A stretch of 64,000 nt of DNA from Clostridia bacterium. GTDB lineage: Bacteria > Bacillota > Clostridia > TANB77 > CAG-465. Both the position numbers and the translations under genes were made by a program. The stretch lies in the NCBI GenBank assembly GCA_045536565.1, contig JAZSNU010000020.1:71275-135274 (forward strand), given 5' to 3'. Positions 5,444 through 58,250 of the stretch are shown here, piece after piece (position 1 is the first letter of the stretch; each line of letters begins with the position of its first letter). Below the pieces are notes generated by a model. That model had not been told where the DNA came from and made no database searches. It saw nothing but the letters and a program-made list of their open reading frames with translations.

Positions 5444-5519
5444 GGGCTATTAGCTCAGTTGGCAGAGCACTTGACTTTTAATCAAGTTGTCCCGCGTTCG
5501 AATCGCGGATAGCTCACCA
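5444..5519 (+). tRNA. tRNA-Lys (anticodon TTT)
   Basis: Cloverleaf folded by eye: acceptor GGGCTAT/ATAGCTC, anticodon stem CTTGA/TCAAG with loop CTTTTAA, T-arm GTTCGAATC, 3' CCA encoded. Confidence 0.9.
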
Positions 5520-5523
5520 TGAT

Positions 5524-5598
5524 GGCCCGTTGGTCAATCGGTTAAGACATCGCCCTTTCACGGCGGAGTGAGGAGTTCGACTCTCCTACGGGTCACCA
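5524..5598 (+). tRNA. tRNA-Glu (anticodon TTC)
   Basis: GGCCCGTTGGTCAA...CGCCCTTTCACGGCG...GGTCACCA. Near-identical in layout to Bacillus tRNA-Glu. CCA encoded. Confidence 0.9.
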
Positions 5599-5604
5599 TA
5601 TCGT

Positions 5605-5680
5605 GCTGGAGTAGCTCAGCTGGTAGAGCAGCTGACTTGTAATCAGCAGGTCGTCAGTTCAATTCTGACCTTCAGCTCCA
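5605..5680 (+). tRNA. tRNA-Thr (anticodon TGT)
   Basis: GCTGGAGTAGCTCAGCTGGTAGAGC, anticodon stem-loop GCTGA-CTTGTAA-TCAGC, T-arm GTTCAATTC, CCA encoded. Confidence 0.9.
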
Positions 5681-6210: not shown

Positions 6211-7428
6211 CTATTGATTAGTTTGTACTTGTGGTCTATCTGCAATATCCATTTTAAGTCCTGATTCAAGTGGTGCTACTACTGTATAAGGAATAGATAT
6301 ATTAAATGTTTCAAAATTACTTAAATCAACACCAACTAAAGAAGTTGTATTTTTATACATAAATGTTGTATTAATAACATTTGGATCTTTTTCATTTAAA
6401 TAATCTGTAATAATATTACTAAATTCTACATCAAGTTTTTCAGCAGTATCCATATTGTACATATTCCATAAACCTGTTTTAGTATCTTGAATTAATAAAA
6501 AGTCAGCATTTGCACCGTTAAGCGTAACTAGGGTAGTTGGATATGTAAATATTTTATCTATTATTACATCACCATTTAAATTATATATTTTGTTACCAGT
6601 AGTTCCTCTTTTTTGAATTACATAGCCTTCATCGTTATATTCAAATTCAAAACCTTCTTCTGTTTCAATTGAAGTACCGTTATCAAGTATTATATAGTTT
6701 AAATCATCTTTTACAGCCATACATGCTTTATTTGAATCTTTGATTTGTTCTATTTTATCAAATGTTGCTTCAATAATTTGCATGTTATCTTCGTCTACAA
6801 TACCGTATTTTGTACTTCCAGAATTACTAGATTTTATTATATATTGACTTTTTCCCTCTTTTGTAGGATAAGTTAACGCTTGCAATACATCTGCTTTATT
6901 TAAACTAGTATCAGAAACATCTTTTGCAACGAATTTATCAGGTGGTGTAATTTCTAAAAAAGAATAAACAGCATTTATAGAGGCAAAGTCTTTTTCAGTT
7001 GCTTTTTTACCAGTTGCATCTACTAATCTATATATTGCATCGCTTTCAGATGCACCGTATTGCAATATGTATTTATCTAGAAAACCATCAGCACTCTTAA
7101 TGTATATAAAATCATTTTCAACACCGTCTAATGTAATTGTTTCACCTGTTAAAAGATTATATAAATAACTTATATTTTCTGCTTTCAAATATAATATGTT
7201 GTTTACTCTTGCAACCTTTGTAAACTGTGGATTTGCTATTGTTTTTCCATTTGCGCTCATTACACCAAAAGCATTATTAGCTTCAATAATGTAAAGTCTT
7301 TCTATTGAATCACTATTACTAGTATTAGTTGGCTTTAAATCTTTAATTGCTATTATTATTCCCAACCCTATTAAAGTAATTGCCACCATTATTAATATAA
7401 TGGCGATAATTGTGTTCTTATTAACCAT
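6211..7428 (-). CDS. hypothetical membrane-anchored protein, repeated beta-rich (WG-repeat-like) modules
   Basis: RBS GAGGGAG. N-terminal TM (IIAIILIMVAITLIGLGIIIAI) then repetitive segments rich in Y/N/G/D. Confidence 0.55.
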   Translation of the reverse strand: MVNKNTIIAIILIMVAITLIGLGIIIAIKDLKPTNTSNSDSIERLYIIEANNAFGVMSANGKTIANPQFTKVARVNNILYLKAENISYLYNLLTGETITLDGVENDFIYIKSADGFLDKYILQYGASESDAIYRLVDATGKKATEKDFASINAVYSFLEITPPDKFVAKDVSDTSLNKADVLQALTYPTKEGKSQYIIKSSNSGSTKYGIVDEDNMQIIEATFDKIEQIKDSNKACMAVKDDLNYIILDNGTSIETEEGFEFEYNDEGYVIQKRGTTGNKIYNLNGDVIIDKIFTYPTTLVTLNGANADFLLIQDTKTGLWNMYNMDTAEKLDVEFSNIITDYLNEKDPNVINTTFMYKNTTSLVGVDLSNFETFNISIPYTVVAPLESGLKMDIADRPQVQTNQ

Positions 7429-7629
7429 ATGTATATCTCCCTCTTTAACATAAATATATATTATATGGTATAATATTACTTAAAATTTGTCAATAATAAT
7501 TAATTAAGGTTAACAAAATTGTAATGTAAATTAAGGTGTGACATAAATACAAAAGATAAATTTGCCGTCTACTTTTGTAATATATTGTAGAAAGTATGGA
7601 CATCTCTTTTATTTGGTTGTATATTTTGC

Positions 7630-9456
7630 TTGGGTGATAGTTTGATATATTTTTTTCTGATAAGTTTTTTTGTTTTTTCTATCGTTGATTATATTTATCT
7701 GTATAATTATTTTGATTCTAAGTTTTTCTTGAATAAATCTGGTAGCAAATTAAATTATTTAGTAGACTTAGAAAACAACAAAAAGAATTTTAAAGATGAG
7801 TTTATAGCAGTTTTTTCAAAAAAGAATTTAGTTATTATTATAAAAGGTTTAATCTATATGATATTAATGCATATATTAAATATTATTGTATTCTATAAAA
7901 TCATTTTTTCGGACTTCTTAATTCTTAATTTAGGATATAAAAAGATAGATGTTGTTTCTACATTTGATTCATATTGGACAGGTTATATAAAAATATATTA
8001 TATAGTTTATACTATATTCTTAATTATTATATATGTTAAATATATAACTAAATCAAAGAACAAAATTCGTTCAAAAAACAAAAAAGAAGATTTAATAATT
8101 AACGATATTAGCAAAATATATTTAGGAAGTACTATTCAAAAAAGCAAGGTATATATTGATAAAGAAGAACTATATAAAAATGTATTAATTACAGGTAGTA
8201 TTGGTACAGGTAAGACGAGTGGCGCTATAAATACATTTTGCAAGTATATGGTGCAAAATAATATTCCTGGGATTGTTATAGATATAAAAGGAAACTATGT
8301 AAGTAAAGTTAAATCATTTTTAAATAATAATAATGTAGAAATAGTTGTTGTAGGTGACGAAAGTACATGTGGTTATAATCCTATAAGAAGAGATATTAAC
8401 AGCATGGAAATGGCAAATAGATTAAGAAAAGTAATTGAACTAATCTCTATTTCTAACACTAGTGATTCATATTGGTTAGATAAGGTGGAAAATGTACTTT
8501 TTAATGTGCTTTTGCTTATAAAGCATTGTCATTTAAATATAGATTTGCAAGAAATACACAGGTGCATAACTGATGATGAATATCTAAATAGAAATTTAGA
8601 TAAATTAAAAGACATTGTAGTGGATAATATCAATAATGATAAGACAGTACATGAAATAAATAATTTACTACTGTTTTTTAGAAATGAATATTTTAAGTTA
8701 GACATCAGAACAACTAGCATTATAAAATCGGAAATAACAAGACTTACTATACCATTTGTAACTGAATATGATGTGTGTAAAAAGTATGGAACTGAAAGTA
8801 AAGATAATACTAATTTAACATTCAGTAATATAACTCCTAAAATAGTGATTTTTTCTATGAATATGAGTAAAAATTTCTTACTTACTAAAATACTAGCAAC
8901 TTTTATCAAATTAGATTTTCAATCAGAAGTCCTTCAAAAAATATCAAATCCAATAGAAACATTTTGTATATGTGATGAGTATCAAGAATTTGCAAATAAG
9001 CAGGATGCACATTTTCTTTCTTTATCTAGGGAGGCCAAATGTATGAACATATTTAGTATGCAAAGTTATTCTTCACTAAATAATACATTAAAAAATGAAT
9101 ATGCATCAAATGTAATAATACAAAATCTAGTAAATAAGATATGGTTTAGAAATGATGATAATTATACATCACAAGAAATAGTAAAACAAATTGGACAAGA
9201 GAAAAAACAATTTAAAACAAGTAGTATAAGTGAAGGTGCTGAGGAATCAAAGAAAAGCATATTAAGCGGATTTAAGAACAAAAAATCAAATATATCAAAG
9301 ACTATCAGCTATGCAGAAAATAATGACAATATAGTTAGTTCAAAAGTTATAACACAAGAGCTTGAAGTGCTAGAGGCATTAGTGCTGTTTGGCAGTAATG
9401 GTAAAATGAATGAAATTCAAAGAATAAAGTTTGAAAGGGAGGAAGATAATGAATAA
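7630..9456 (+). CDS. VirD4/TraG-like (type IV coupling protein-like) membrane P-loop ATPase
   Basis: About 150 aa of N-terminal TM helices; Walker A ITGSIGTGKTSG; Walker B-like FCICDEYQEF; downstream Q-rich motif IFSMQSYSSLNN resembling the T4CP conserved QSxxQ motif. Exact start uncertain (TTG at 7630 is simply the first in-frame start in the track). Confidence 0.55.
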   Translation: MGDSLIYFFLISFFVFSIVDYIYLYNYFDSKFFLNKSGSKLNYLVDLENNKKNFKDEFIAVFSKKNLVIIIKGLIYMILMHILNIIVFYKIIFSDFLILNLGYKKIDVVSTFDSYWTGYIKIYYIVYTIFLIIIYVKYITKSKNKIRSKNKKEDLIINDISKIYLGSTIQKSKVYIDKEELYKNVLITGSIGTGKTSGAINTFCKYMVQNNIPGIVIDIKGNYVSKVKSFLNNNNVEIVVVGDESTCGYNPIRRDINSMEMANRLRKVIELISISNTSDSYWLDKVENVLFNVLLLIKHCHLNIDLQEIHRCITDDEYLNRNLDKLKDIVVDNINNDKTVHEINNLLLFFRNEYFKLDIRTTSIIKSEITRLTIPFVTEYDVCKKYGTESKDNTNLTFSNITPKIVIFSMNMSKNFLLTKILATFIKLDFQSEVLQKISNPIETFCICDEYQEFANKQDAHFLSLSREAKCMNIFSMQSYSSLNNTLKNEYASNVIIQNLVNKIWFRNDDNYTSQEIVKQIGQEKKQFKTSSISEGAEESKKSILSGFKNKKSNISKTISYAENNDNIVSSKVITQELEVLEALVLFGSNGKMNEIQRIKFEREEDNE

Positions 9457-9775
9457 AATATTAATCAAAATAACGGCCGTGTTGGTTATTACAGTGATTG
9501 TAATAGGTATGTTTTCAACAGTATATGGTGCAACAACACCAACACTAGTTAATAAACTAAATTCTATTTTAAAGAAAATAAAAGAATATATGGTAAAACT
9601 TGCAGGACCTGCTGCTGCTCTTGCAATTGCAACAGGGGTTATGATTAGAAAATTAAGTTTTGGTGATGAAGAAAAAATGGTGATAGGGAAAAGGGTTATC
9701 ATTAACGCTATATTTTGTTATTTCATAATTTTGCTTGTAGATTTAATTGTTAAATTTATAGAGGCTTTGGTATAG
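9449..9775 (+). CDS. small membrane protein with VirB2/TrbC pilin-like topology
   Basis: ATG 6 nt after AGGGAGG, overlapping the upstream stop (ATGAATAA). Signal-peptide-like N-terminus (VYGA/TT) then two hydrophobic helices (AGPAAALAIATGVMI, VIINAIFCYFIILLVDLIV). Confidence 0.4.
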   Translation: MNKILIKITAVLVITVIVIGMFSTVYGATTPTLVNKLNSILKKIKEYMVKLAGPAAALAIATGVMIRKLSFGDEEKMVIGKRVIINAIFCYFIILLVDLIVKFIEALV

Positions 9776-9778
9776 AGT

Positions 9779-19659: not shown

Positions 19660-20688
19660 TTATAAAGAAGATGCTTGTATTGCTTTTGCACCATCATAAT
19701 TTTCTTTTATACATTCTATAAATTTATCTGCTAGCATAGGGTCAAATTGTTTTCCTTTACCTTTTGCTATTTCCTCTAACCCAAATTCTATTGTTGTTGC
19801 ATCTTTATATGGCCTTTTAGCAGTTATAGCATCAAAAGAATCACATATAGTAAGGATTCTAGTTAGATATGGGATTTCATCTCCTCTTAATCCAGAAGGA
19901 TATCCTAAACCATCATATTGTTCATGGTGGTATTTAATTAGAGGAAGCGCATCTTTAAAAATTTCAGATGTAGATAATATGTTTGTTCCAATTAAAGTGT
20001 GTAATTTCATATGGTTGTATTCTTCGTCTGTTAATTTTGTACTTTTTAAAAGAATTGTATCTGCTATTCCTATTTTTCCGACATCATGGAATTGAGCAGC
20101 AAGTACAAGTGTATTTAGTTCATCGCTATTTAAGTTTAAATAATTTCCAAACATTGTTGAATATTTAGCAACTCTATCTGAATGATCTTTGGTAAAGTTG
20201 TCTTTCGCACCAACTGTATTTTTAAGGATGTCTGCAACTTCAATTGCGTGTAGCTCGATTGTATGAGCCATTTTTTTTACATTTTCTAAACTAGCTATAT
20301 ATTTAAATCCGCTTTCAATCAAAAGAACTAATTGATCAAATCTTGAACTTTTTTCAAAATATGCTTGTATATCCAAAGAACGCATTGTATCTATAGAAGG
20401 AGTTAGTTCTTTGTGGGCTGACATCAAGATTATATAAATTTCTTTGTTAAATTCTCTAACAAGTTTAACTATTTCATCTCCTCTTACAGGGTTCATCAAG
20501 TAATTTATAATAAGTATATCATATTGATTGTTTTTTAAGTTTTCGAGTGCAGTTATTGCCTCTGTAAAAGGGCTAACTTGTATATTATATTTCTTTAAAA
20601 CGACGCTCATAGCATCCATCATCCCTACATCGTCGTCAATTACCATTACTTTGCTTTTTCTGCCTGTAACTTGCTCTAATTCGTTCAT
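19660..20688 (-). CDS. response regulator with HD-GYP c-di-GMP phosphodiesterase domain
   Basis: N-terminal REC (VMVIDDDVGMMD..., D..ILIINYLMNPVRGDE) plus HD...HHEQYDGLGYP. RBS GGAGGTC. Confidence 0.85.
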   Translation of the reverse strand: MNELEQVTGRKSKVMVIDDDVGMMDAMSVVLKKYNIQVSPFTEAITALENLKNNQYDILIINYLMNPVRGDEIVKLVREFNKEIYIILMSAHKELTPSIDTMRSLDIQAYFEKSSRFDQLVLLIESGFKYIASLENVKKMAHTIELHAIEVADILKNTVGAKDNFTKDHSDRVAKYSTMFGNYLNLNSDELNTLVLAAQFHDVGKIGIADTILLKSTKLTDEEYNHMKLHTLIGTNILSTSEIFKDALPLIKYHHEQYDGLGYPSGLRGDEIPYLTRILTICDSFDAITAKRPYKDATTIEFGLEEIAKGKGKQFDPMLADKFIECIKENYDGAKAIQASSL

Positions 20689-21802: not shown

Positions 21803-21895
21803 GCGTAGTCGCTTAGGCGATAAGGTGTTTGTGAACCTTGTCAGATCCGGAAGGAAGCAGCAATAAGCATACTACCTTATGCGCCGTAAGCGATT
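21803..21895 (+). ncRNA. ffs: signal recognition particle RNA, short (4.5S-like) form
   Basis: Contains the near-invariant domain-IV motif GTCAGATCCGGAAGGAAGCAGC. The flanks TCGCTTAGGCGATAAGGT and ACCTTATGCGCCGTAAGCGA pair into a long helix. Followed by TTTTATT. Lies immediately upstream of dnaX, as in Bacillus. Confidence 0.75.
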
Positions 21896-21924
21896 TTATT
21901 ATACATATTTTAAGGGGTGAGAAT

Positions 21925-23848: not shown

Positions 23849-24442
23849 ATGTATTCAGAATCAGTTCAAAAGTTAATTAAAGAGTTTGAAAAATTTCCTG
23901 GGATAGGTCATAAAACAGCAGTAAGGCTTGCCTTTTATGTTTTAGAAGAAGATGAATCTTTTGCTAAAAATATGGCAAGTGCAATTGTTGAAGCCAAGAG
24001 CAAAGTTAAATTTTGCTCTAAATGCTTTAATATGACAGATACTGACCCATGTTCAATATGCTCAAATCAAAAAAGAGATAAAGAGTTACTTTGCGTTGTA
24101 GAAGATGTAAAAGATGTAGTTGCAATGGAAAAAACACATGAATTTAAAGGAATGTACCATGTACTTCATGGAGCAATATCTCCTATGAATAATGTGTCTG
24201 CCGCAGATATAAAGATAAAAGAATTAGTTTCAAGACTTTCAGATAATGAAATTAAAGAGGTAATTATTGCAACAAATCCTACTATTGAAGGTGAGGCAAC
24301 AGCAATGTATATATCAAGACTTTTGAAACCATTAGGTGTAAAAGTTACTAGAATTGCACATGGAATACCAGTAGGAGGCGACCTAGAATATACTGATGAA
24401 ATTACACTAATTAAAGCCTTAGAAGGTAGAAGGGAAATGTAA
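23849..24442 (+). CDS. recR: recombination protein RecR
   Basis: HhH, C4 zinc finger (CSKC...CSIC), Toprim. 197 aa. Confidence 0.9.
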
Positions 24443-24443
24443 T

Positions 24444-25808
24444 ATGGATAAATTTAAAAAATTAAGACAAGATTATCCAATATTTGAATATAACTCATAC
24501 AAAATAGAATATAACAAGGGAAACATTAAAGTACAGTATTACTTTAATGTTCCTGGTCTTACCCAGTTTAGTCCAAGCTGGGATTTTCCATTTGCGGGAG
24601 AGTTAACAGAGCAGCAAAAAACATTATTTGAAACTGTTATATTTAACTTGGGCATGGTTGAGGTTGTGTCATACTTAAAGGCAACTTGTTCACCAAAGCT
24701 TATTGTAAAAACCGGAGAGTTAAATAATGAACAAATAGATTGGTATAAAAAGTTATATATTAATGGATTAGGAGAATTTTTCTATGTAAATGGGTTAGCG
24801 CATGAAATGAATATAGATACATTTGTAAATATTATATGTGAAACTGATAAAAGTCATATTGAAGCCAAAGAATCAAATATAGATTTAGATGGTAATTTAA
24901 TACCAGTTGGTGGAGGGAAAGATTCTGTTTTAACATTAGAGGTGTTAGAAGAAGAAAAAAACACCAATACTTGTTATATTGTTAATCCGAGAGGGGCTTC
25001 ATACGAATGTGCAAAAATGGCGGGATATGATGATAATGATATATATTGTCCAAAAAGATATTTAGATAAGAAAATAATAGAATTAAATAATCAAGGTTTC
25101 TTAAATGGACATACACCATTTTCCGCTATACTTGCATTTTCTTCATATGCATCTGCAATATTACTTGGTAAAAAATATATAGTGCTATCAAATGAGGATA
25201 GTGCAAATGAATCAAATGTTGAGGGAACAAGTATAAATCATCAGTATTCAAAAAGTATTGAATTTGAAAATGATTTTAGGTATTATGCTAAAAAATATTT
25301 ATGCCAAAATGGTCCGGAATATTTTAGTTTATTAAGACCAATAAGTGAATGGCAAATAGTAAAAGGGTTTGTAAAGAGTTCAAAATATTTTGAAATATTT
25401 AAAAGTTGTAATGTTGGTTCTAAAACTGATATATGGTGTGAGGACTGTCCTAAATGTTTGTATGTATATATAATGTTAGATGCTTTTTTAGAAGATAGTT
25501 ATATGAATAAAATATTTAAAACAAATATGCTTGAGAATAATAAATTAGAAAATATATTTAATGGTTTAGTATATCCAAATTATGACAAACCTTTTGAATG
25601 TGTAGGCACAAAAGAGGAAGTAAATCTGTGTATTGATATGATAATATCTAAACTAAAAAAACAAAACAAGGACTTACCAGTTCTTTTAAGAAACCATAAA
25701 GTAGAGCAAGAGTTGGAAGATAGAATAAATAAAATGGTAAATAATTGGAATAACAATAATAATTTACCAAAAGAATTTGAAATAAAGTTGAGAGAATATT
25801 TAATGTAA
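24444..25808 (+). CDS. PP-loop ATP-pyrophosphatase-like protein of unknown function (candidate MurL-type UDP-MurNAc-L-Ala-L-Glu epimerase)
   Basis: 454 aa. About 150-aa N-terminal domain of unknown type, then PP-loop IPVGGGKDS (SGGxDS) and a C-terminal Cys cluster CEDCPKC. Start overlaps the recR stop; the next gene is a MurD-family ligase 16 nt downstream. Confidence 0.5.
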   Translation: MDKFKKLRQDYPIFEYNSYKIEYNKGNIKVQYYFNVPGLTQFSPSWDFPFAGELTEQQKTLFETVIFNLGMVEVVSYLKATCSPKLIVKTGELNNEQIDWYKKLYINGLGEFFYVNGLAHEMNIDTFVNIICETDKSHIEAKESNIDLDGNLIPVGGGKDSVLTLEVLEEEKNTNTCYIVNPRGASYECAKMAGYDDNDIYCPKRYLDKKIIELNNQGFLNGHTPFSAILAFSSYASAILLGKKYIVLSNEDSANESNVEGTSINHQYSKSIEFENDFRYYAKKYLCQNGPEYFSLLRPISEWQIVKGFVKSSKYFEIFKSCNVGSKTDIWCEDCPKCLYVYIMLDAFLEDSYMNKIFKTNMLENNKLENIFNGLVYPNYDKPFECVGTKEEVNLCIDMIISKLKKQNKDLPVLLRNHKVEQELEDRINKMVNNWNNNNNLPKEFEIKLREYLM

Positions 25809-25823
25809 GTTTGAGGAGAATAC

Positions 25824-27110
25824 ATGTTAAAACAAAAAATAATAGAGGAACTTAAAAATAAAAAGGTATTAATTTTAGGTTTTGGAAGAGAAGGAAGAAG
25901 TACATATAACTTCATACAAAACAACAATGTAAACTGTATATTGGGAGTAGCGGATAAGAATGAAATAGTAGATGAGAAAATAGTAAATAGTAATATAAGT
26001 TTATATACAGATGAAAAGTATTTAGATAGTATATTTGAATATGATATTGTAATGAAATCACCTGGAATATCATTAAAAGATATTGATTATTCTAGTATTG
26101 AAGATAAAATAACATCTCAAACAGAACTTTTCTTAAAGTATGCATCAAAAAAAACAATAGGTATAACAGGTACAAAGGGAAAAAGTACAACATCTTCTAT
26201 TTTACACAATATGTTAAAAACAAAGTATAACACAATGCTTGTTGGAAATATTGGTAAGCCAGTATTTGAAGAAATTGATAAATATAACGATATAGACTAT
26301 TATGTGTATGAATTATCTTCTCACCAATTAGAGCATGTAGGATATAGTCCTCATATATCGGTTTTACTTAATATGTATGAGGAGCATCTTGACCATTATA
26401 ACTCATTTGACGAATATAAAGATGCAAAGAGAAATATATTTAAACATCAAAAAGAAACAGATTACTTAATATATAATCAAGATATGGAAGATATAATTTT
26501 AGGAGGTTATAGTCCAATACAAAACATATTAGATATATCAAAAATAGATTTTGAAATTAAAACAAATCTTATTGGAAAGCATAATGAGTACAATATGAGT
26601 GTAGCAGTAACCATAGCAGTATTACTGGGTGTAGATAATATGAGCATATCAAATTCGTTGCAAGAATTTAAAGGACTTCCACATAGATTAGAATATGTAG
26701 GGAAATATAATAATATTTATTTTGTAGATGATTCTATTGCAACTATACCAGAGGCGACTATTTCTGCTATTGAAAGCATAGAAAATGTTAGCACAGTTAT
26801 AATAGGTGGAATGGATAGGGGAATAGATTATACTAATTTAATAGATTACCTTAATAATAGTAATTTAGATAATATAGTGTTAATGAATGATAGTGGAAAG
26901 AGAATATATGCTGGGTTAAACAAAACAAATAGAAAAAACAATATAGTCATAGTAAATAGTTTAGAAGAAGCAGTAAAATATGCAATTCAGAATACAAACA
27001 AAAATATGACATGTCTATTATCTCCTGCCGCGGCAAGTTATGGAATATTCAAAAACTTTGAACAGCGAGGAGATAAATTTAAAGAATATATTATAAAATA
27101 TACAAAATAA
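25824..27110 (+). CDS. MurD-family UDP-N-acetylmuramoyl-L-alanine--glutamate ligase (MurD or MurD2)
   Basis: Mur ligase motifs GITGTKGKSTT, SSHQLE, KHNEYN, GLPHRLEYV, DDSIATIPEAT, SPAAASYGIFKNFEQRG, all co-linear with MurD. Confidence 0.8.
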   Translation: MLKQKIIEELKNKKVLILGFGREGRSTYNFIQNNNVNCILGVADKNEIVDEKIVNSNISLYTDEKYLDSIFEYDIVMKSPGISLKDIDYSSIEDKITSQTELFLKYASKKTIGITGTKGKSTTSSILHNMLKTKYNTMLVGNIGKPVFEEIDKYNDIDYYVYELSSHQLEHVGYSPHISVLLNMYEEHLDHYNSFDEYKDAKRNIFKHQKETDYLIYNQDMEDIILGGYSPIQNILDISKIDFEIKTNLIGKHNEYNMSVAVTIAVLLGVDNMSISNSLQEFKGLPHRLEYVGKYNNIYFVDDSIATIPEATISAIESIENVSTVIIGGMDRGIDYTNLIDYLNNSNLDNIVLMNDSGKRIYAGLNKTNRKNNIVIVNSLEEAVKYAIQNTNKNMTCLLSPAAASYGIFKNFEQRGDKFKEYIIKYTK

Positions 27111-27252
27111 GGAACTTTTTTCCTTATTTTTTTCTGTTGTTATAAAGTATAAAAACAAATTACAAAAAAATTACACTTTTTATACAAAAAGTATAGTCAA
27201 ATTATATTTTTGTGATATAATTAATACAAATTGATGTTAAAGAGGTGTCGGT

Positions 27253-27939
27253 ATGGATAAGAAAATATTAATAGTTGATGATGAAAAACCAATTGTTGAT
27301 ATATTAAAATTTAATCTAGAAAAAGAAGGATACAAAACTATCGAAGCATATGATGGAGAACAAGCAGTTGCTCTTGCTTTTGAATCAAATCCAGATTTAA
27401 TAATATTGGATGTAATGCTTCCTAAAATGGATGGGTTTACTGTATGTAAAAAAATAAGACAAAAATTAACTTGCCCAGTAATAATGCTTACAGCTAAAGA
27501 GGAAGTTGTAGATAAAATAATTGGTTTGGAACTTGGCGCAGATGACTATATGACAAAACCATTTAGTATCCGTGAATTAACTGCTAGAATTAAGGCTAAT
27601 TTAAGAAAACATGTTATACAAGAAGAGGTTGAAGAAGAGAATCAAACTAGTATTAAAATTAAAGATTTGGTTCTAGATTCTGAAAAATATGTTGTAATAA
27701 AAAATGGAACAATAATTGACCTTACAATGAAAGAGTTTGAAGTACTTAAACTTTTAGCAACTCATGCAGGACAAGTATTTACAAGAGAACAAATACTTAA
27801 AAATGTGTGGGGATATGATTACTATGGAGATTTAAGATCAGTTGATGTTACAATAAGAAGAATAAGAGAAAAAATTGAAGACAATACAGCTGAACCTAAA
27901 TATATTATAACAAAAAGAGGAATAGGATATTATGTTTAA
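27253..27939 (+). CDS. OmpR-family response regulator (WalR/YycF-like)
   Basis: MDKKILIVDDEKPIVDIL..., winged-helix C-terminus. High similarity in layout to WalR. Confidence 0.85.
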   Translation: MDKKILIVDDEKPIVDILKFNLEKEGYKTIEAYDGEQAVALAFESNPDLIILDVMLPKMDGFTVCKKIRQKLTCPVIMLTAKEEVVDKIIGLELGADDYMTKPFSIRELTARIKANLRKHVIQEEVEEENQTSIKIKDLVLDSEKYVVIKNGTIIDLTMKEFEVLKLLATHAGQVFTREQILKNVWGYDYYGDLRSVDVTIRRIREKIEDNTAEPKYIITKRGIGYYV

Positions 27940-29326
27940 ATCTATTAAATCAAGTATAAGAATATTTGCAATACTTATGGTACTTATTACATCTTTATTA
28001 ACAATGATGTTGGTGTCATATAAGCATACAGGAAAAATAGAGATTACATTTGACACACTAATTGTAGTAGCAATTGGTGTGTTAGTTTTAGTGGGCTTTA
28101 TTGTGGCTACTGCAATTTCAAAAGGTATAACTATGCCAATGAAAAAGATGGAAAAAGCCATGAATAATATACTAAGCGGAAGATTAAACAATGTAAATAA
28201 AAGAATGTTAACAGAACATGCAAAATCAGAAGAAATGCAAAATTTTGTTGGTATTTTTGATGATATGATGAATATGATGGCAAAGAAAAACTTTGACCTA
28301 AATAGTGAAGAAAGTAAAACAGAGATAATACTTGAACATATGGCAGATGGAGTAGTTGCTTTTTCTGTAAATAGGCAAGTGATACATATGAATAAAGCAG
28401 CAATGGAACTGCTTGGAATTACAAGTGGTGAGGATACATTTGAAAAAATTGTAAAGAAGATAGGTATAAAATTAGAATTTGATAAAATAATGTACCTTCC
28501 AAATTACAAGAATATTGAACAAGAAGTAAGTGTAAATGATAATGTTTTAAAACTTGTTTTAGTGCCATATCATAGCAATAAAATGATGCCTATGGGTGTT
28601 ATATTAATAGTAAAGAATATAACAGAAAGTATTAAGTTGGATGATATGAGAAAAGAATTTGTTGCAAATGTTTCTCATGAGTTAAAAACACCACTTACAT
28701 CGATTAAAGGATATTCCGAAACAATATTAAATGGTGGTTTGTCACCCGAAGAAAGCGAAAGATTTATTAAAGTAATAAACAATGAAGCAAATAGAATGAA
28801 TAGGCTTGTGCAAGATTTACTTCAACTTTCTAGATTTGATTATCAGAAGAATAAATTTACAGCAGTTAAATTTAATTTAGATGATTTAGCAAAAGAAGTA
28901 GCAGAAAAAATGCAGTATGTAGCATCTGAGAAAAAGCATAAGTTAGAATGCATAATTAATATGGTGCCACCTCCAATATTTGCCGATAAAGATGCAATTG
29001 AGCAAGTAATAATAAATGTAGTAAGCAATAGTATTAAATATACACCAGATGGTGGAGAGATATTTATATATGTTGGAAATATTGCAGGTAAAGCATATAT
29101 AAAAGTGGTGGACAATGGCATAGGTATCCCAGAAAAAGATTTAAAAAGAATATTTGAAAGATTTTATAGGGTAGATAAAGCCCGTTCGAGAGAGATGGGT
29201 GGAACAGGTCTCGGTCTTTCTATTGTAAAAGAAATTGTAGATAAAAACAACGGAACAATTGAAATGAAGAGCGAACCAGGTAAAGGAACAGAAGTAATAA
29301 TAACATTACCTACAAAAACAAATTAG
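27932..29326 (+). CDS. sensor histidine kinase (WalK-like, short form)
   Basis: Two TM segments, HAMP/PAS region, H-box SHELKTPLTSIKGY, HATPase (N, G1 DNGIGI, G2 GGTGLGLSIV). Overlaps the regulator by 8 nt. Confidence 0.85.
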   Translation: MFKSIKSSIRIFAILMVLITSLLTMMLVSYKHTGKIEITFDTLIVVAIGVLVLVGFIVATAISKGITMPMKKMEKAMNNILSGRLNNVNKRMLTEHAKSEEMQNFVGIFDDMMNMMAKKNFDLNSEESKTEIILEHMADGVVAFSVNRQVIHMNKAAMELLGITSGEDTFEKIVKKIGIKLEFDKIMYLPNYKNIEQEVSVNDNVLKLVLVPYHSNKMMPMGVILIVKNITESIKLDDMRKEFVANVSHELKTPLTSIKGYSETILNGGLSPEESERFIKVINNEANRMNRLVQDLLQLSRFDYQKNKFTAVKFNLDDLAKEVAEKMQYVASEKKHKLECIINMVPPPIFADKDAIEQVIINVVSNSIKYTPDGGEIFIYVGNIAGKAYIKVVDNGIGIPEKDLKRIFERFYRVDKARSREMGGTGLGLSIVKEIVDKNNGTIEMKSEPGKGTEVIITLPTKTN

Positions 29327-46141: not shown

Positions 46142-46999
46142 ATGTTAAAGTATAGACATAGAGGAGGTGGTTGTATCTATGAAATAATATGTATGGGTAT
46201 ATTCACAATAATTATATATAAAGTGTTAGATAAATATTTAATTGAGCAGAAAGGAAAAATTATAATAGGAAAGATCAATTTAGATAACAATCTTAATATA
46301 ACCAGAATGCCTACATGTATAAAAAAATATTTATCGAATATTCATAAAAAATTATTTAATATAAGTAATCCATATGGATTAAGTCTAAAAAAATATATAT
46401 TAATAAAATATGTTTTTTCATTTATGTTTTTTATCGTATCGATTATTAATAAAAATAGTATTTTAGTATCTTTAATTATTACAATCTTTACACATTTTAT
46501 ACCTAATTTGTTAATTTATATGTTTAAGAAAAACGAAAGAGTTTATGTTATAAAAAATCTAAGAAATATTGTAAATAGTATGGTTATATCTTTGTCTGCA
46601 TCACTTACATTAGAGTCAGCATTAAAAAGCAGTATAGATGCAATTGAATATAAAAGGTTAAAAGAGGAATTTGAAACTTTTATAGATAAATATAAAACAT
46701 ATGGATATAACATGAGAAAAGCCATTAATTCTCTTAAAGAAAAATTTAATTACTATGAAATTGAACTCTTTATATCGACACTCTTAAATGCAGAAAATGA
46801 TGGTAATATTATTAAAAGTTTAGAAAAGTATAATATGGTTTTAGATATAAGTTATTCTAAATATTTGGCTAAGGAAAATTCAAAAAGAGTTCTTTACCTT
46901 ACATTAGGAACGGTACTGGCACTTGTAAATATAATAATTATTGTAATGTATCCTATGTTTATAGAAGTAGCAGAAAATCTGCAAGTGATATTTAGTTAG
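46142..46999 (+). CDS. type II secretion system F-domain protein (TadB/TadC-like)
   Basis: Polytopic membrane protein with a T2SS-F-like cytoplasmic segment (SLSASLTLESALKSSIDAIEY...). Confidence 0.55.
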   Translation: MLKYRHRGGGCIYEIICMGIFTIIIYKVLDKYLIEQKGKIIIGKINLDNNLNITRMPTCIKKYLSNIHKKLFNISNPYGLSLKKYILIKYVFSFMFFIVSIINKNSILVSLIITIFTHFIPNLLIYMFKKNERVYVIKNLRNIVNSMVISLSASLTLESALKSSIDAIEYKRLKEEFETFIDKYKTYGYNMRKAINSLKEKFNYYEIELFISTLLNAENDGNIIKSLEKYNMVLDISYSKYLAKENSKRVLYLTLGTVLALVNIIIIVMYPMFIEVAENLQVIFS

Positions 47000-47010
47000 G
47001 AGGAAAAAAT

Positions 47011-47244
47011 TTGAAAAAAGTATTATTAGTAGTAAAAAACGGAAAAAAGAAAGAAGAAAAAATAAAAAATAATTTAAATAGTAAAAGAGGTTCAGAACTT
47101 GCTCAAACAGTTCTTATAACAGCAATTATGATTATGCTTATTGCAGCGTTATTCTTTCCTCAAATAAAAGGACTCTTCCAAACAGCAATGACTGAAATTA
47201 CAACTTGGTTTAATACCATTATTGGTGATATATCAGCAACATAA
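47011..47244 (+). CDS. Flp/Fap-type pilin-like protein
   Basis: 77 aa. Basic leader, then G/SELAQTVLITAIMIMLIAALFF hydrophobic segment (class III signal-peptide-like). TTG start 7 nt after AGGAGG. Confidence 0.4.
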   Translation: MKKVLLVVKNGKKKEEKIKNNLNSKRGSELAQTVLITAIMIMLIAALFFPQIKGLFQTAMTEITTWFNTIIGDISAT

Positions 47245-47263
47245 ATAATATAAGGAGAAAAAA

Positions 47264-47908
47264 TTGAATAATATAAAGAAAATAACAATTGCATTTTTAA
47301 TAGCATTAATTGTTGTAGTATTAGTAGAAATAACATGGAATAAATTTGGGATAAAACAAACAAATATATATGTTGCAGTAAAGGAAATATATAAAGGAGA
47401 AAAAATACTAGAAGATGATGTCAAAAAAATATCTTTAAATGCAACGGAAGGTATAAGTAAATATACAAATAGTGATATAGTAGGAAAGATTGCCAAGAAT
47501 AATATTTCGTCTGATAAGATTGTATCAAAGGGAGATGTTACCGCAAACAAATTAGAAATAGAAGATGAGGAAAGTTATGAATATATAACAATAGAGGTAA
47601 AAAGTATAAGTGACTCTCTTGCATATCAGATAAAAAAAGGAGATTATATAAATGTATATTATACAACTAAAAATAGAAAACTAGAGAATTTATTTATAAA
47701 CAAACGAGAAGTACTTCAAAATAATTTAAGCATTACATACAGAATATTTGAAAATACAAAGGTGATAGGCCTATATAATACAGTAGGTCAAGAAGTAAAA
47801 AATGGTAATCAATATAATGGGATAATGCTTAGAGTCAAAAAGCAAGATGCACTATTTGTATCGAATATAAAAGATGAAGGTGTATTTACAACATCTATAT
47901 TAAAATAA
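47264..47908 (+). CDS. CpaB/RcpC-like protein (N-terminal TM, SAF-like domain)
   Basis: TM followed by VAVKEIYKGEKILEDDV, typical of the CpaB SAF domain. TTG start after AAGGAG. Confidence 0.45.
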   Translation: MNNIKKITIAFLIALIVVVLVEITWNKFGIKQTNIYVAVKEIYKGEKILEDDVKKISLNATEGISKYTNSDIVGKIAKNNISSDKIVSKGDVTANKLEIEDEESYEYITIEVKSISDSLAYQIKKGDYINVYYTTKNRKLENLFINKREVLQNNLSITYRIFENTKVIGLYNTVGQEVKNGNQYNGIMLRVKKQDALFVSNIKDEGVFTTSILK

Positions 47909-47920
47909 TGGAGGTATAGT

Positions 47921-48283
47921 TTGAAAATAGCATTTATTAATTCAGAGAAATATTCCAAGTATAATGATAAAATAAAAGAAATTGTAGAAAATGTTAATAA
48001 TAGGTTAGTAAAAAATATGCAGCAAGCAGAAGTAAATCAAGTAGCAATAGGAACAAGGAAAAAATATGATTTATATTTTGTAATAACAGATGATATAGAA
48101 GATTTTAATCTGGTTTGTCTAAAAATAAAACCTAAAATAAATCCAGTATTAATCACTAAAAATCTAGAAGAAAAATTTATTAGGTCAGTTATATTCTCAG
48201 TAAAAGATATATTATACATTGATAATAGTATTGAAGTTATAACAAATAGAATAGCAAGTATTATAGGAAAAACATATGTATAA
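47921..48283 (+). CDS. hypothetical protein, possible degenerate receiver-like fragment
   Basis: 120 aa; alternating beta/alpha pattern with acidic pocket candidates (VITDDIED). No ATPase domain follows. Confidence 0.3.
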   Translation: MKIAFINSEKYSKYNDKIKEIVENVNNRLVKNMQQAEVNQVAIGTRKKYDLYFVITDDIEDFNLVCLKIKPKINPVLITKNLEEKFIRSVIFSVKDILYIDNSIEVITNRIASIIGKTYV

Positions 48284-48836
48284 AAAACAGAACAAGTATA
48301 TTTTAGTCATAATGTTTTTTGTAGGTATTCTTTTTATAGCTGGTTTTGTCAAAACATTTTTTAGTTATAACGATAAATTTATTGATACCACAAATATGTC
48401 TATATATAGAATAGATAATAGTATATCTAAAAATATTACATCAAGACAAATATTGCGTAAGGATAATGTTGTTTTTGTAGGAAATAGCAAAAAAGAAATT
48501 GAAAATGGATACTATGATCTAAAAATAATGTTAGAAGATAGAAATGTTAAGTTATATATAAATAAATTGTGGAAAGTATTTAATCAATCATTATATGAAA
48601 AAGATTATGTGCGTGAGGTAATAAACAGTGTATTTGATATTTTTGAGATTAATCAAAAAAAACAAAAAGAATGTTTAATACAATATATTACTAATGGATA
48701 TTTAGTTAGTAAAGGAGTAAATAAGGAAAATAGTAGTAATGAACAAATATATATAGATAAAATTAGAATTAAATCAGAAATAGTAGATAGCGAATTGATT
48801 TTGAATATTTGTAAAGAGGTGAAGTGTGAAAGTTAA
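48276..48836 (+). CDS. hypothetical membrane-anchored protein
   Basis: N-terminal TM; overlaps neighbours by a few nt. Confidence 0.4.
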   Translation: MYKKQNKYILVIMFFVGILFIAGFVKTFFSYNDKFIDTTNMSIYRIDNSISKNITSRQILRKDNVVFVGNSKKEIENGYYDLKIMLEDRNVKLYINKLWKVFNQSLYEKDYVREVINSVFDIFEINQKKQKECLIQYITNGYLVSKGVNKENSSNEQIYIDKIRIKSEIVDSELILNICKEVKCES

Positions 48837-50436
48837 GAATATAAAACTTGCAATTTCAACATTGTGCATGTGTATAATGTGCATAACTTCCAACAAAATA
48901 TATGGAATAAGCGAAGATTTTAAATTTGTAATAGATACAATAGGTATACCTAGATATAATGTATATGGAAAAGAGATTAATGAGGAAGTATATAAAGCAT
49001 ATAATATTTTTTCTTATGGCTGGCCAGAAGAATTGGGTGCAGATATAGGGCAAAGATGGAAAGGTTCAAAATATGGTTTATGGGCACAAGGAATAGGGGA
49101 ATATACTGGAAGTGGAACAAGAGGAGAATATAATTTGCTTGGTAAAGATTATAGTGGGAATATCATTAATAATTATTATTTTCCTGTGGATTTTATTCCT
49201 ACAGATACACCAGAATATTGGGAGTACTGTGTTAATCCTGGTGCAATAGAATCTTGGAATGATAAAAACAAATACAAATATGTTGAACAATTAGAATATA
49301 TGAAAAATACCAAATTGCTTTTTAATGATATTTCAAGTAGAGATAATGCAGATAATCCAGATATGATGAGAGAATATAACATAAGAGCATCACAAATTGG
49401 GTTAGATAAGGCAAGATTAGATGTGTGTTCCACATGGAAAACAAATGGTATGATTTATGTTAAAAGAAGAGTAGGAAATAGTACTAGGTATGCAGTTTTT
49501 TTAACGAATCCTATGGCTTCTGATGCAAAAATTAAAGCATATATAGATAATGTAAGACTAAGTATGACTATGTATAAAAAACAGGACGAAATAAGAATAC
49601 CAATAAGTTATGGTGCAAACATAGAAAACATGAATGGGTATGCTAAGAAAGAACATATAAAAGAAATAAAATCTGAGTTATATATTAATGGGAAGGTAGT
49701 GGATGAAATAAGTGGCAGTAAAATAGATACAGTGGGTAAAAAATATGTATTAAAGTTATCCAGAGAAGAGTTAAATGAAAATGAGTACAATATAATAGAA
49801 ATTAAAAATAAAAGTTATGCACATACTGAATTTGCAGTGGATGGTCTCATGCAAAGCAGTAAAACTATAACGATAAGAGTATTTGTAGAGAAAAAAGAAG
49901 ATATCCCCTTTAATTTTGATAGTGTAAAAGTTTTAGAAAAAGAAAATGATAATCTGGTTGTAAGACCACTTGCCCAATTTAATTCGTCGGAAGAAAGTTT
50001 CGGAATAACAGAAGCAGGAAAATATTTAGCAGTAAAATTTAATATTAATGATAAACTAAAATATGAAGATTTACAGGATATTGCATTATACTTAAATGAT
50101 GAAAGAATAGATAGTTTTGAAACTAAAAGGTCTGATAATAGTAATGCTTGTTGTGTGATTTTTAGAATACCTACATACACAGATTCTACCATATTTGGTT
50201 GGAAGAGTTTAAGGCAGCTTTATGGTAATTATTTTAGTATTGATGAAACCCAGATAGGAAAAAGAATAAACAATGCACATGAGTTTGTGATAAAAGTAAA
50301 GTATAATGACAAGGAATATAGTGTAAGTTGCAACTTTGATACAATAGATGATTATGTCACTAATATTAATTATAGATATGATGGCGCTAAAAATAATAAT
50401 GAGATGGTATTGTTTTCGGAGTGGTTAGAAGAATGA
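48826..50436 (+). CDS. large secreted protein of unknown function (536 aa)
   Basis: GTG start after AGAGGTGAA. Signal-peptide-like N-terminus (LAISTLCMCIMCITSNKIYG). Rich in W/Y/N. Confidence 0.5.
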   Translation: MKVKNIKLAISTLCMCIMCITSNKIYGISEDFKFVIDTIGIPRYNVYGKEINEEVYKAYNIFSYGWPEELGADIGQRWKGSKYGLWAQGIGEYTGSGTRGEYNLLGKDYSGNIINNYYFPVDFIPTDTPEYWEYCVNPGAIESWNDKNKYKYVEQLEYMKNTKLLFNDISSRDNADNPDMMREYNIRASQIGLDKARLDVCSTWKTNGMIYVKRRVGNSTRYAVFLTNPMASDAKIKAYIDNVRLSMTMYKKQDEIRIPISYGANIENMNGYAKKEHIKEIKSELYINGKVVDEISGSKIDTVGKKYVLKLSREELNENEYNIIEIKNKSYAHTEFAVDGLMQSSKTITIRVFVEKKEDIPFNFDSVKVLEKENDNLVVRPLAQFNSSEESFGITEAGKYLAVKFNINDKLKYEDLQDIALYLNDERIDSFETKRSDNSNACCVIFRIPTYTDSTIFGWKSLRQLYGNYFSIDETQIGKRINNAHEFVIKVKYNDKEYSVSCNFDTIDDYVTNINYRYDGAKNNNEMVLFSEWLEE

Positions 50437-57230: not shown

Positions 57231-58250
57231 ATGGCTAAAAGAGAAAATAGTATTTTAACGAAAGTAAAAAATAATATATTAGAGAATAACATGATAAATG
57301 ATAAAGACAACATTGTAGTAGGATTATCTGGTGGACCAGACTCAGTATTCTTAATACATGCTCTTGATTATTTAAAACATATATTCAAGGCTAAATACAA
57401 TATAGAATATGATGTTATAGTTTGTCATGTAAATCATATGATAAGAAAAGAAGCAAAACAAGATGAACTACTTGCAAAAAAATATGCAGAAAAATATGGA
57501 TTTAAATTTTATGCTTTGGAAAAAGATGTAGGTAGTATAGCAAAAGAAGAAAAAATTTCAGAGGAAGAATGTGGTAGAAATATACGATATGATTTTTTTG
57601 AAAAAGTGTTAAATGAAAATAATGGGACAAAAATTGCGGTAGCACATAATGCAAATGATAACGCAGAAACAGTTATCCATAATTTTATCAGAGGAACTGG
57701 ATTAAATGGTTTAAAAGGTATAAAATTTGTAAATGGAAAGATAATAAGACCAATGCTTAATATCGAAAAGAAGGACATTATACAATATCTAGAAGAAAAT
57801 AATATAAGGTATAATATAGATAAAACTAACCTGACAAATGATTATACTAGAAATAAAATAAGAAATGAGTTAATAAAAAATATTGAAGCAGAGTATAATC
57901 CAAGTATTGTTAAATCAATAAATAGAATGGCTAAAAACATATCAGAGGATATAGAATATATAAATGGTATGGCTAAAAATCAATATGATGAAATAACCAT
58001 AGAAAAAGAAGAAAAACAAGTTCTTTTAAATATAAAGGAATTTAATAATATAAATAAATCTATTCAAAAAAGGTTAGTTATAAACGCAATTTTGGATAGC
58101 ACTCATAGTATAAATGGAATAGAAGATAAACATATAGAAGATATTTGTGTGTTACTTCAAAAATCAATAACAGGGAAACAATATTCTATTGGAAATAAGT
58201 TTTTAGTATCAATAGAAAGAAACAAAAAAGCAAGATTTATGGGAAAATAA
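57231..58250 (+). CDS. tilS: tRNA(Ile)-lysidine synthetase (short form)
   Basis: PP-loop VGLSGGPDS. Confidence 0.8.
   Translation: MAKRENSILTKVKNNILENNMINDKDNIVVGLSGGPDSVFLIHALDYLKHIFKAKYNIEYDVIVCHVNHMIRKEAKQDELLAKKYAEKYGFKFYALEKDVGSIAKEEKISEEECGRNIRYDFFEKVLNENNGTKIAVAHNANDNAETVIHNFIRGTGLNGLKGIKFVNGKIIRPMLNIEKKDIIQYLEENNIRYNIDKTNLTNDYTRNKIRNELIKNIEAEYNPSIVKSINRMAKNISEDIEYINGMAKNQYDEITIEKEEKQVLLNIKEFNNINKSIQKRLVINAILDSTHSINGIEDKHIEDICVLLQKSITGKQYSIGNKFLVSIERNKKARFMGK

Follow-up and report, generated by a model that had tools for sequence, protein, structure and literature searches.

Within a 64,000-nucleotide stretch of an uncultured Clostridia genome (the window), a gene for a PP-loop ATPase-like protein (ORF1) is followed directly by one for a MurD-family ligase, raising the question of how the D-Glu residue at the second position of the peptidoglycan stem peptide is made in this organism. 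In Xanthomonas, MurD2 adds L-Glu and MurL epimerizes it unidirectionally with conversion of ATP to AMP (PMC8788868, PMC5808125); the X. oryzae enzymes are XOO_1320 (MurD2) and XOO_1319 (MurL, EC 5.1.1.23), and the Micromonospora and Salinispora orthologues are confirmed in vitro (Feng et al. 2017, reviewed in PMC8788868 and PMC5808125). The route is reviewed as limited to a few genera, comprising Xanthomonadales, a few Alphaproteobacteria, and rare actinobacteria (PMC8788868), and an earlier note on this DNA proposed that the gene pair is a further instance of it.

Both open reading frames are present as that note describes them (Table 1), and they complete a transcription unit ordered SRP RNA-dnaX-ybaB-recR-murL-murD2, as read from the ORF list and sequence. 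ORF1 has more than 7,991 homologues at E ≤ 1e-3 (the nearest 86% identical), on all of which PF26298 and PF26299 are precomputed, and aligned homologues share its start at an N-terminus beginning MDKF; these are thus real genes and not chance open reading frames. The start of murL had been thought to overlap the recR stop, but the junction is TAA-T-ATG, in which a single nucleotide separates the recR stop (24440-24442) from the murL ATG. A MurD-like ligase does follow murL closely, although the spacing is not the 16 nt previously given but 15 nt, with a Shine-Dalgarno sequence of its own, and in the window murL and murD2 are tightly packed without overlap. The GC content of the pair (0.25 to 0.29) is the same as that of its flanks, and recent horizontal insertion is thus ruled out. 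The unit ends with a terminator-like hairpin (-9.3 kcal/mol, z = -2.5 versus shuffles) that is only moderately backed by direct folding; a consensus terminator scan passed over it, its stem being poor in G-C pairs.

Table 1. Coordinates of the murL-murD2 locus and its features in the window
Feature	Position	Strand	Description and basis
recR	23849..24442	+	directly 5' of murL; ORF list, sequence; L005 orthologue has RecR Pfam domains
murL (ORF1)	24444..25808	+	454 aa; NF041275 match, 32% identity to X. sacchari MurL, AF2 model
MurL N-terminal domain, aa 1-148	24444..24887	+	invariant Y77, K79, Y105, G108-F112, Y114
PP-loop motif G156-G-G-K-D-S161	24909..24926	+	SGGxDS-type ATP pyrophosphatase loop; sequence, top structural matches
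Cys4 motif C322-x9-C332-x2-C335-x2-C338	25407..25457	+	predicted QueC-type structural zinc site
K382-P-F-E-C386-V-G388 motif	25587..25607	+	invariant in 14/14 sequences including Xanthomonas and Pseudonocardia
murL-murD2 spacer	25809..25823	+	15 nt; Shine-Dalgarno GAGGAG at 25813-25818; sequence
murD2-type ligase gene	25824..27110	+	428 aa; Mur ligase N, M, and C domains
AU-rich hairpin, then U-run	27104..27140	+	overlaps murD2 stop; terminator-like, operon end; RNA fold

The similarity to MurL, on which the earlier note had made its proposal depend, is readily detected. The sole NCBIfam match of ORF1 is MurL (NF041275, E = 5.2e-68), spanning aa 10-426 against positions 6-418 of the 447-position model, and BLASTP aligns it with the annotated X. 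sacchari MurL at 32% identity over 330 aa (E = 6e-52). Its 229.6 bits fall below the cut-off of 700 for NF041275 (MurL_Xanthmoales), an equivalog model built for Xanthomonadales only, so that ORF1 is a MurL-family homologue lying outside this narrow, clade-specific equivalog. An alignment of 14 MurL-family sequences from three phyla, including Xanthomonas and Pseudonocardia, has 56 invariant columns, and the motifs GGGKDS, NGHxP, SNExSA, NHQxSK, SCN, WCxxCxKC, and KPFECVG are common to the Clostridia, Xanthomonas, and actinobacterial sequences. The PP-loop picked out previously is confirmed, within the context LIPVGGGKDS, and none of the 14 sequences departs from it at G156, G157, G158, D160, or S161. 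The CxxCxxC motif is likewise found (C332-E-D-C335-P-K-C338, nt 25437-25457), and with a fourth invariant cysteine, C322, located 9 residues upstream, it makes a Cys4 motif that is probably a QueC-type structural zinc site, its spacing resembling that of the zinc site in QueC. The domain ahead of the PP-loop, estimated earlier at about 150 aa, is about 148 aa long, has a fold without confident assignment, and may bind substrate. A scan with the KPFECVG pattern yields at least 580 relatives.

The AF2 model of MurL (pLDDT 91.8, pTM 0.92) has the SGGxDS-type loop opening a Rossmann-like alpha/beta domain, which places it in the PP-loop ATP pyrophosphatase superfamily; PP-loop ATPases head its Foldseek matches, with QueC at the top. 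This predicted fold bears out the suggestion of an adenylating PP-loop enzyme. PP-loop enzymes work via adenylated intermediates, and such chemistry fits the published release of AMP by MurL. The likeness is structural only, with QueC and the QueC-like PP-loop ATPases Cap9 and QatC sharing 13-14% identity with MurL; neither Pfam nor NCBIfam yields a QueC family (PF06508) match for ORF1 at E ≤ 0.1, and a PDB sequence search with MurL returns no match at E ≤ 1. The description of ORF1 as lacking QueC signatures thus holds for family matches but not for structure, where QueC is the closest solved fold. Identification of ORF1 as either TilS or QueC is ruled out, as it matches neither family and a separate tilS is present at 57231..58250 of the window. 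Relative to QueC, MurL has in the AF2 model an additional 148-aa N-terminal domain and a helical C-terminal extension of about 100 aa, its proposed substrate is a UDP-muramyl dipeptide, and its proposed outcome is stereoinversion and hydrolysis, with no amide or nitrile formed. MurL is described in reviews as being without known domains (PMC8788868, PMC5808125), and a PP-loop fold like that of QueC, together with the Cys4 site, provides a mechanistic lead.

The partner ligase has the same three-domain architecture (Mur ligase N, M, and C; Pfam) as canonical MurD, and all of the E. coli MurD catalytic residues (K115, N138, H183, and K198) are present. It scores 322.8 bits against TIGR01087, above the cut-off. 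TIGR01087 is an equivalog model for D-Glu ligases; genuine Xanthomonas MurD2 is evidently above its cut-off too, and is labeled murD by PGAP.

Specificity for L-Glu in X. oryzae MurD2 is determined by E197 and R358, and the E197D/R358K double substitution switches it to D-Glu (PMC8788868). The key residues of the window ligase are E23, K118, E187, I305, and R332, of which E187 and R332 occupy the positions of E197 and R358 (D182 and K348 in E. coli, with D and K there) and I305 that of E. coli K319, giving the same E/I/R set as X. sacchari MurD2. A K319T substitution lets E. coli MurD accept L-Glu. Canonical MurDs differ at these three positions, with D/K/K, A or T/K/R, or N/I/K in the 14 that were compared and Glu at the D182 position in none of them; Ile at the K319 position also occurs in unlinked Oscillospiraceae MurDs, and Arg at the K348 position in D-Glu-specific Bacilli MurDs. 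The residues of the E23, K118, and E187 columns recur in X. sacchari MurD2 and in at least 93% of 74 MurL-linked ligases, and none of 12 controls has them. At E. coli A414/L416 the window ligase has A and Y, whereas Xanthomonas MurD2 has P and F (P433/F435); the P433A and F435L mutants of X. oryzae MurD2 keep wild-type specificity (PMC8788868), and Pro and Phe are thus not functionally required there. A crude NJ tree (87 sequences, 437 columns, 50 bootstrap replicates), in which X. sacchari supplies the only proteobacterial MurD2, groups the window ligase with Xanthomonas MurD2 and apart from 12 canonical MurDs; 48 replicates recover the clade of MurL-linked ligases, and 44 recover it with X. 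sacchari MurD2 inside. The E187 and R332 residues, the E23/K118 signature, and this grouping all point to a ligase of the MurD2 type, as the earlier note had suspected.

The pairing of the two genes extends well beyond the window. A MurD2-type ligase lies directly 3' of murL on the same strand in all 80 related GTDB loci, mostly with an overlap of a few nucleotides or fused to it, and 5 of the 80 are in-frame murL-ligase fusions. MurL is fused to a Mur ligase in 35 of the best 150 representatives of clusters at 50% identity, arranged as MurL-MurD, MurD-MurL, or MurE-MurL. Both the preceding and the following enzyme of the pathway are thus found joined to MurL, and these natural fusions, among them an 895-aa MurL-MurD ORF (L008:5851-8538), suggest that substrate is handed over between consecutive steps. 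One related locus (L005) keeps the ybaB-recR-murL-murD2-response regulator synteny, and among 73 genes on the upstream side and 66 on the downstream side none is a conserved neighbor of the pair. The MurL family is not bound to one context, as some of its members, on Pseudonocardia plasmids, are without a ligase partner. In Bulleidia-type loci, no murD comes after mraY, and the murL-murD2 pair is found 3.4 kb downstream of it on that strand (mraY is annotated in L066, and L051 and L072 have it at the corresponding position).

The resemblance to the Xanthomonas system is thus one of full-length homology in both proteins, of the same murL-then-murD2 order (MurL is directly upstream of MurD2 in X. 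sacchari), of invariant MurL motifs, and of Glu and Arg determinants, E23/K118 signature, and clade in the ligase. The differences are a modest identity to the characterized proteins (just 32% for MurL and 29% for MurD2), replacement of P433 and F435 by A and Y, a host with a low-GC genome in a phylum outside the published distribution, and the frequent occurrence in its lineage of the module as one fused polypeptide, sometimes as MurE-MurL; MurL fusions are unmentioned in the reviews (PMC8788868, PMC5808125).

Homology, specificity residues, predicted fold, strict linkage, and fusions all agree with the MurL/MurD2 proposal, and judged from sequence we consider it about 85% probable that the pair is the Firmicutes version, in uncultured Clostridia, of the MurD2/MurL route to the second residue of the stem peptide. 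The ligase would use ATP to join L-Glu, not D-Glu, onto UDP-MurNAc-L-Ala, and the QueC-like PP-loop domain of MurL would then adenylate the terminal Glu at its alpha-carboxylate, with ATP going to AMP and PPi. Adenylation would acidify the alpha-proton, which would be taken off and put back on the opposite face, via a direct enolate or perhaps an oxazolone-type intermediate; C386, H223, and H266 are candidate catalytic bases, with C386 a possible acid/base residue for the proton exchange. The adenylate would be hydrolyzed, and the reaction would be irreversible and require no free D-Glu. We infer that L-Glu ligation and ATP-to-AMP epimerization hold for the window pair as they do in Xanthomonas. 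Compared with the canonical route of MurI (or a D-amino-acid aminotransferase) and MurD, the proposed order is reversed, with ligation first and epimerization on the nucleotide-peptide afterwards; the route would do without a pool of free D-Glu, each stem peptide would cost one more ATP, and the ligase gene is near recR (recR-murL-murD2) and outside a dcw context.

The most serious of the other readings, though still an unlikely one, is that the pair acts as proposed but is redundant or conditional, the genome also encoding a canonical D-Glu-adding MurD elsewhere, together with either murI or a D-amino-acid aminotransferase. The window covers 64 kb and the dcw cluster lies outside it, so that a canonical murD beside mraY elsewhere is conceivable. 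Set against this, there is no murI, fold-type-IV aminotransferase, or second murD within the window, no murI in 862 kb around the 80 related pairs, and no racemase among the most frequent flanking families of related loci; a literature search for glutamate racemase in Ruminococcus flavefaciens gave no useful result. Published MurD2/MurL carriers are without D-Glu-forming genes, the Bulleidia-type arrangement has murL-murD2 near an mraY with no murD next to it, and in the window the pair shares a core operon with dnaX-ybaB-recR and has the GC content of its surroundings.

Far less probable is that the MurL homologue amidates the Glu alpha-carboxylate, for example to form isoglutamine at the nucleotide-precursor stage, and that the ligase is an ordinary or relaxed MurD. 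Other PP-loop enzymes do turn adenylated carboxylates into amides, but every motif invariant in the alignment is also present in bona fide Xanthomonas MurL, and the L-Glu determinants of the partner ligase make sense only with an epimerase acting afterwards. Neighboring genes vary, with no linked glutaminase or ammonia-donor gene, and the MurE-MurL fusion implies that the MurL product is a MurE substrate. Strongly disfavored, and the least credible of all, is a chance association between an ordinary D-Glu-adding MurD and an unrelated PP-loop enzyme acting, for example, in tRNA or nucleoside modification. The TIGR01087 score and the closest solved fold, that of a nucleobase-modifying enzyme, are both in keeping with such an association, but it is at odds with the specific full-length homology of ORF1 to MurL, the lack of QueC and TilS family matches, the separate TilS, the invariable linkage and frequent MurD and MurE fusions, and the position of the ligase, with its MurD2 signature, inside the MurD2 clade.

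The MurD2/MurL route is itself known, but its occurrence in Firmicutes is new relative to the searchable literature, in which it is not reported from that phylum. Relatives of the MurL module are found in at least 580 species-level genomes and 2,447 clusters at 50% identity, and these sequences show the module to be widespread among Firmicutes of the gut and rumen, including many uncultured Clostridia. In public annotation the epimerase is a 'hypothetical protein', and the standard murD equivalog model names even genuine Xanthomonas MurD2 a D-glutamate ligase; metabolic reconstructions of these organisms may therefore assign the wrong substrate to the ligase or show a gap in D-Glu supply. Targeting MurD2/MurL has been promoted as a way to obtain narrow-spectrum, pathogen-specific antibiotics (PMC8788868), an argument that is weakened by the presence of the module in many gut and rumen lineages. 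Much more tentatively than the assignment itself, and at a little under even odds, MurD2/MurL could be the sole entry of D-Glu into peptidoglycan for a large share of the Firmicutes in gut and rumen (Ruminococcus, Lachnospiraceae, Oscillospiraceae, Erysipelotrichaceae-type, and related MAGs, with possibly some Bacteroidales), often as one fused enzyme and sometimes with MurE. In that case none of these organisms would make free D-Glu, the pathway would extend beyond the few pathogen-rich genera to which published accounts confine it, and inhibitors of MurD2/MurL would strike major commensals that MurI inhibitors would spare.

ORF1 (murL) and ORF2 (murD2) belong to the MurL/MurD2 system, judged by their homology, residue signature, phylogeny, and linkage. 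Both are real genes, confirmed in the ORF list at the positions that the earlier note gave, and their GC content (0.25 to 0.29) equals that of the flanks. Upstream, the unit is contiguous with an SRP RNA gene, dnaX, ybaB, and recR, and an AU-rich hairpin with a U-run ends it. The murL start was thought to overlap the recR stop, but 1 nt separates them (TAA-T-ATG); the ligase does lie next to murL as claimed, but behind a 15-nt spacer with its own GAGGAG ribosome-binding site. For dnaX, the ORF list has a mechanical TTG start (21838) that falls within the SRP RNA; the true start is probably a downstream ATG giving MSYVALYRKY. Between murD2 and the OmpR-type response regulator and histidine kinase that follow it come a hairpin resembling a terminator and a promoter-like site, which has an extended -10 TG; the regulator is 83% identical to its counterpart in a related locus (L005), likewise placed after murD2.

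Features of the window and of related loci (L numbers)
Feature	Location	Strand	Remarks
ORF1 (murL)	24444-25808	+	454 aa
ORF2 (murD2)	25824-27110	+	428 aa
PP-loop motif LIPVGGGKDS, G156-S161	24909-24926	+	sequence
Cys motif C332-x2-C335-x2-C338, fourth conserved Cys C322 upstream	ORF1		sequence, alignment
AU-rich hairpin and U-run, end of unit	27104-27140	+	RNA folding
Small bacterial SRP RNA	21804-21901	+	63.4 bits; directly 5' of dnaX
Promoter-like site	27194-27221
OmpR-type regulator and histidine kinase	27253-29326	+	after murD2
Receiver-domain protein with HD..GYP motif	19660-20688	-	close 5' neighbor of the dnaX operon, transcribed divergently
tRNA cluster	5444-5677		beside the ORFs at 6211-10618
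404-aa ORF	6211-7428	-	no family assignment
TrwB-like type IV coupling protein	7630-9456
TrbL/VirB6-like ORF	9779-10618		weak match
ORF run with weak or no family matches	46142-50918	+
MurL-MurD fusion	L008:5851-8538		single ORF
MurD2-type ORF with extension	L057:3122-5332		MAG labelled Muribaculaceae
MurL-family gene, Pseudonocardia alni pPaSha1	L004:4830-6230
murD, Pusillibacter faecalis	L085:2483-3859
murD, Subdoligranulum variabile	L086:2468-3862

The predicted similarity of ORF1 to MurL was detected, its sole NCBIfam match being NF041275, UDP-N-acetyl-alpha-D-muramoyl-L-alanyl-L-glutamate epimerase (MurL) (E = 5.2e-68; query aa 10 to 426 against model positions 6 to 418 of 447). The model is Xanthomonadales-specific, and with 229.6 bits against a cutoff of 700, ORF1 falls outside that narrow equivalog. 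A Pfam search gives just a sub-threshold match to DUF6395; homologues of ORF1 bear the precomputed accessions PF26298 and PF26299. More than 7,991 homologues score at E ≤ 1e-3, the nearest being 86% identical, and the NCBI entries of near relatives carry the name "hypothetical protein." In a mis-filed Xanthomonas sacchari replicon, found by tblastn of the plasmid collection, an annotated murL has "murD" immediately 3' of it, the arrangement of MurD2 and the same gene order as in the window; the two MurL proteins share 32% identity over 330 residues (E = 6e-52). Clostridia MAG proteins, Xanthomonas MurL, and a Pseudonocardia homologue align with 56 invariant columns, including GGGxDS, GHxP, NExSA, NHQxSK, SCN, WCxxCxKC, and KPFECVG. 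The PP-loop (GGGKDS) and CxxCxxC noted earlier are both present, with C322 in addition, and about 148 residues precede the PP-loop, close to the 150 first estimated.

AlphaFold2, with 54 homologues as input, gave a confident model of ORF1 (pLDDT 91.8, pTM 0.92). QueC ranks top in Foldseek; ORF1 falls outside the QueC family proper. A sequence search of the PDB found no MurL structure. QueC has a Cys4 structural zinc site, and the Cys4 cluster of ORF1 would by analogy serve the same role. Candidates for the acid/base role are C386, H223, and H266, all invariant. MurL is described in reviews as one that "lacks known conserved domains," and it needs ATP and Mg, gives off AMP, and runs from L to D only (PMC8788868, PMC5808125). 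A PP-loop domain directly explains this ATP-to-AMP chemistry, and adenylation by ORF1, as suggested earlier, fits both the QueC-like fold and the published AMP release. MurL would adenylate the terminal Glu alpha-carboxylate, making the alpha-proton more acidic, and inversion would be followed by hydrolysis; a possible path is epimerization of the N-acyl amino-acid adenylate via an oxazolone.

ORF2 has three Mur ligase domains and matches TIGR01087 (murD) with 322.8 bits, a model that fails to separate MurD from MurD2, since PGAP also names Xanthomonas MurD2 "murD." The L-Glu specificity of Xanthomonas oryzae MurD2 is set by E197 and R358 (D182 and K348 in Escherichia coli); the E197D/R358K double mutant ligates D-Glu instead, specificity is unchanged in P433A and F435L, and K319T in E. 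coli MurD confers L-Glu acceptance (PMC8788868). At E. coli positions D182/K319/K348/A414/L416, E. coli MurD reads DKKAL, X. sacchari MurD2 EIRPF, and the window ligase EIRAY (E187, I305, and R332 being the first three). At the first three positions, control MurDs have D/K/K (Acetoanaerobium, Prevotella, Bacteroides, Parabacteroides, Fusobacterium, Neisseria, and Thermotoga), A or T/K/R (Bacillus, Staphylococcus aureus, Listeria, and Streptococcus agalactiae), or N/I/K (Subdoligranulum and Pusillibacter); none has Glu at the D182 position. At these three positions, in order, ligases of the 80 related loci carry Glu (74/80), Ile (77/78), and Arg (77/77). An unbiased column search singled out window residues E23, K118, and E187: X. 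sacchari MurD2 has them, each occurs in at least 93% of the 74 MurL-linked ligases examined, and they are found in 0/12 controls. A neighbor-joining tree of 87 sequences has the MurL-linked ligases as a clade in 48/50 replicates, joined by X. sacchari MurD2 in 44/50, in keeping with the proposal that the full MurD-like ligase is of the MurD2 type. The N/I/K pattern is a third one, unlike canonical MurD and MurD2; in 34/50 replicates its two bearers branch off immediately outside the MurD2 clade, and the Pusillibacter murD lies outside a dcw cluster (fba, hypothetical, murD, yunB, ligA).

MurL-derived patterns, run against GTDB at one genome per species, yielded at least 580 confirmed relatives (of 600 matches listed). 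The best 80 lie in MAGs deposited under the names Ruminococcus (including R. flavefaciens), Lachnospiraceae, Oscillospiraceae, Erysipelotrichaceae/Bulleidia, Bacilli, and Bacteroidales, and some of these MAGs may be mis-binned. A MurD-type gene is directly 3' of murL on the same strand in all 80 of these best loci, mostly overlapping it by a few nucleotides, and in 5/80 (L008, L063, L075, L078, and L081) the two form one in-frame ORF of 838 to 900 aa, both domains being confirmed in L008. Flanking genes vary (the commonest family is in 6/73 loci), so the two-gene module is the conserved unit; in one related locus (upstream neighbor A5, among L005 to L084), the gene directly 5' of murL gives E = 2.5e-76 against PF14336, a D-glutamate cyclase-like family. 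Among 1.84 billion cluster representatives, 2,447 clusters match at E ≤ 1e-3 and 1,003 at E ≤ 1e-30, and the best 150 of the 2,447 (50%-identity clusters) include 35 fusions: 32 MurL-MurD, 2 MurD-MurL (P0174 and P0224), and 1 MurE-MurL (P0265), with one protein (P0173, 1247 aa) organized as MurL-MurD-M20 amidohydrolase. Fusion to the maker of its proposed substrate and to the user of its proposed product places MurL between MurD and MurE. The MurD2-type ORF of L057 extends by ∼300 residues matching DUF362 (E = 4e-50), either a genuine fusion or a stop codon lost in assembly.

Some MurL-family genes on actinobacterial plasmids (L004 from Pseudonocardia alni, H3, and H4) keep every invariant motif but have no Mur ligase beside them, their neighbors coding for WD40-repeat, HTH, and ParA-like proteins. 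The family is therefore not bound to one context and may have members with another substrate.

No murI, fold-type-IV aminotransferase, or second murD is in the 64-kb window, and tblastn of the 862 kb surrounding the 80 related pairs found no MurI. Three Bulleidia-type loci have an mraY with no murD after it, murL-murD2 lying 3.4 kb downstream. These data are no more than suggestive as to murI absence.

Gene content marks the window as an ordinary housekeeping region (htpX, rsmA, mltG, gyrA, dnaX, recR, a two-component system, tatD, metG, holB, ppdK, ruvA, ftsEX, gdpP, dnaB, tilS, and ftsH). The protein divergent from the dnaX operon has a response-regulator receiver domain fused to a C-terminal region with an HD..GYP motif (read by eye), which suggests a cyclic-di-GMP phosphodiesterase-type regulator. 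The run at 46142-50918, with T2SSF-like (E = 3e-4) and SAF/CpaB-like domains followed by three ORFs (186, 536, and 165 aa) that match nothing in Pfam, may code for a Tad/Flp-type pilus, and the region at 6211-10618 resembles the remains of an integrated conjugative element.

The pathway biology itself is not new. The two reviews found on MurL name Gammaproteobacteria, Alphaproteobacteria, and rare actinobacteria as its hosts, note homologues of low similarity in a fungus, cyanobacteria, and an amoeba, and call its distribution limited (PMC8788868, PMC5808125); Firmicutes are not mentioned in them. To this picture, the present analysis adds breadth in gut and rumen Firmicutes, natural fusions, and assignment to a QueC-like PP-loop fold, all of which bear on the proposal of this pathway as a narrow-spectrum drug target.
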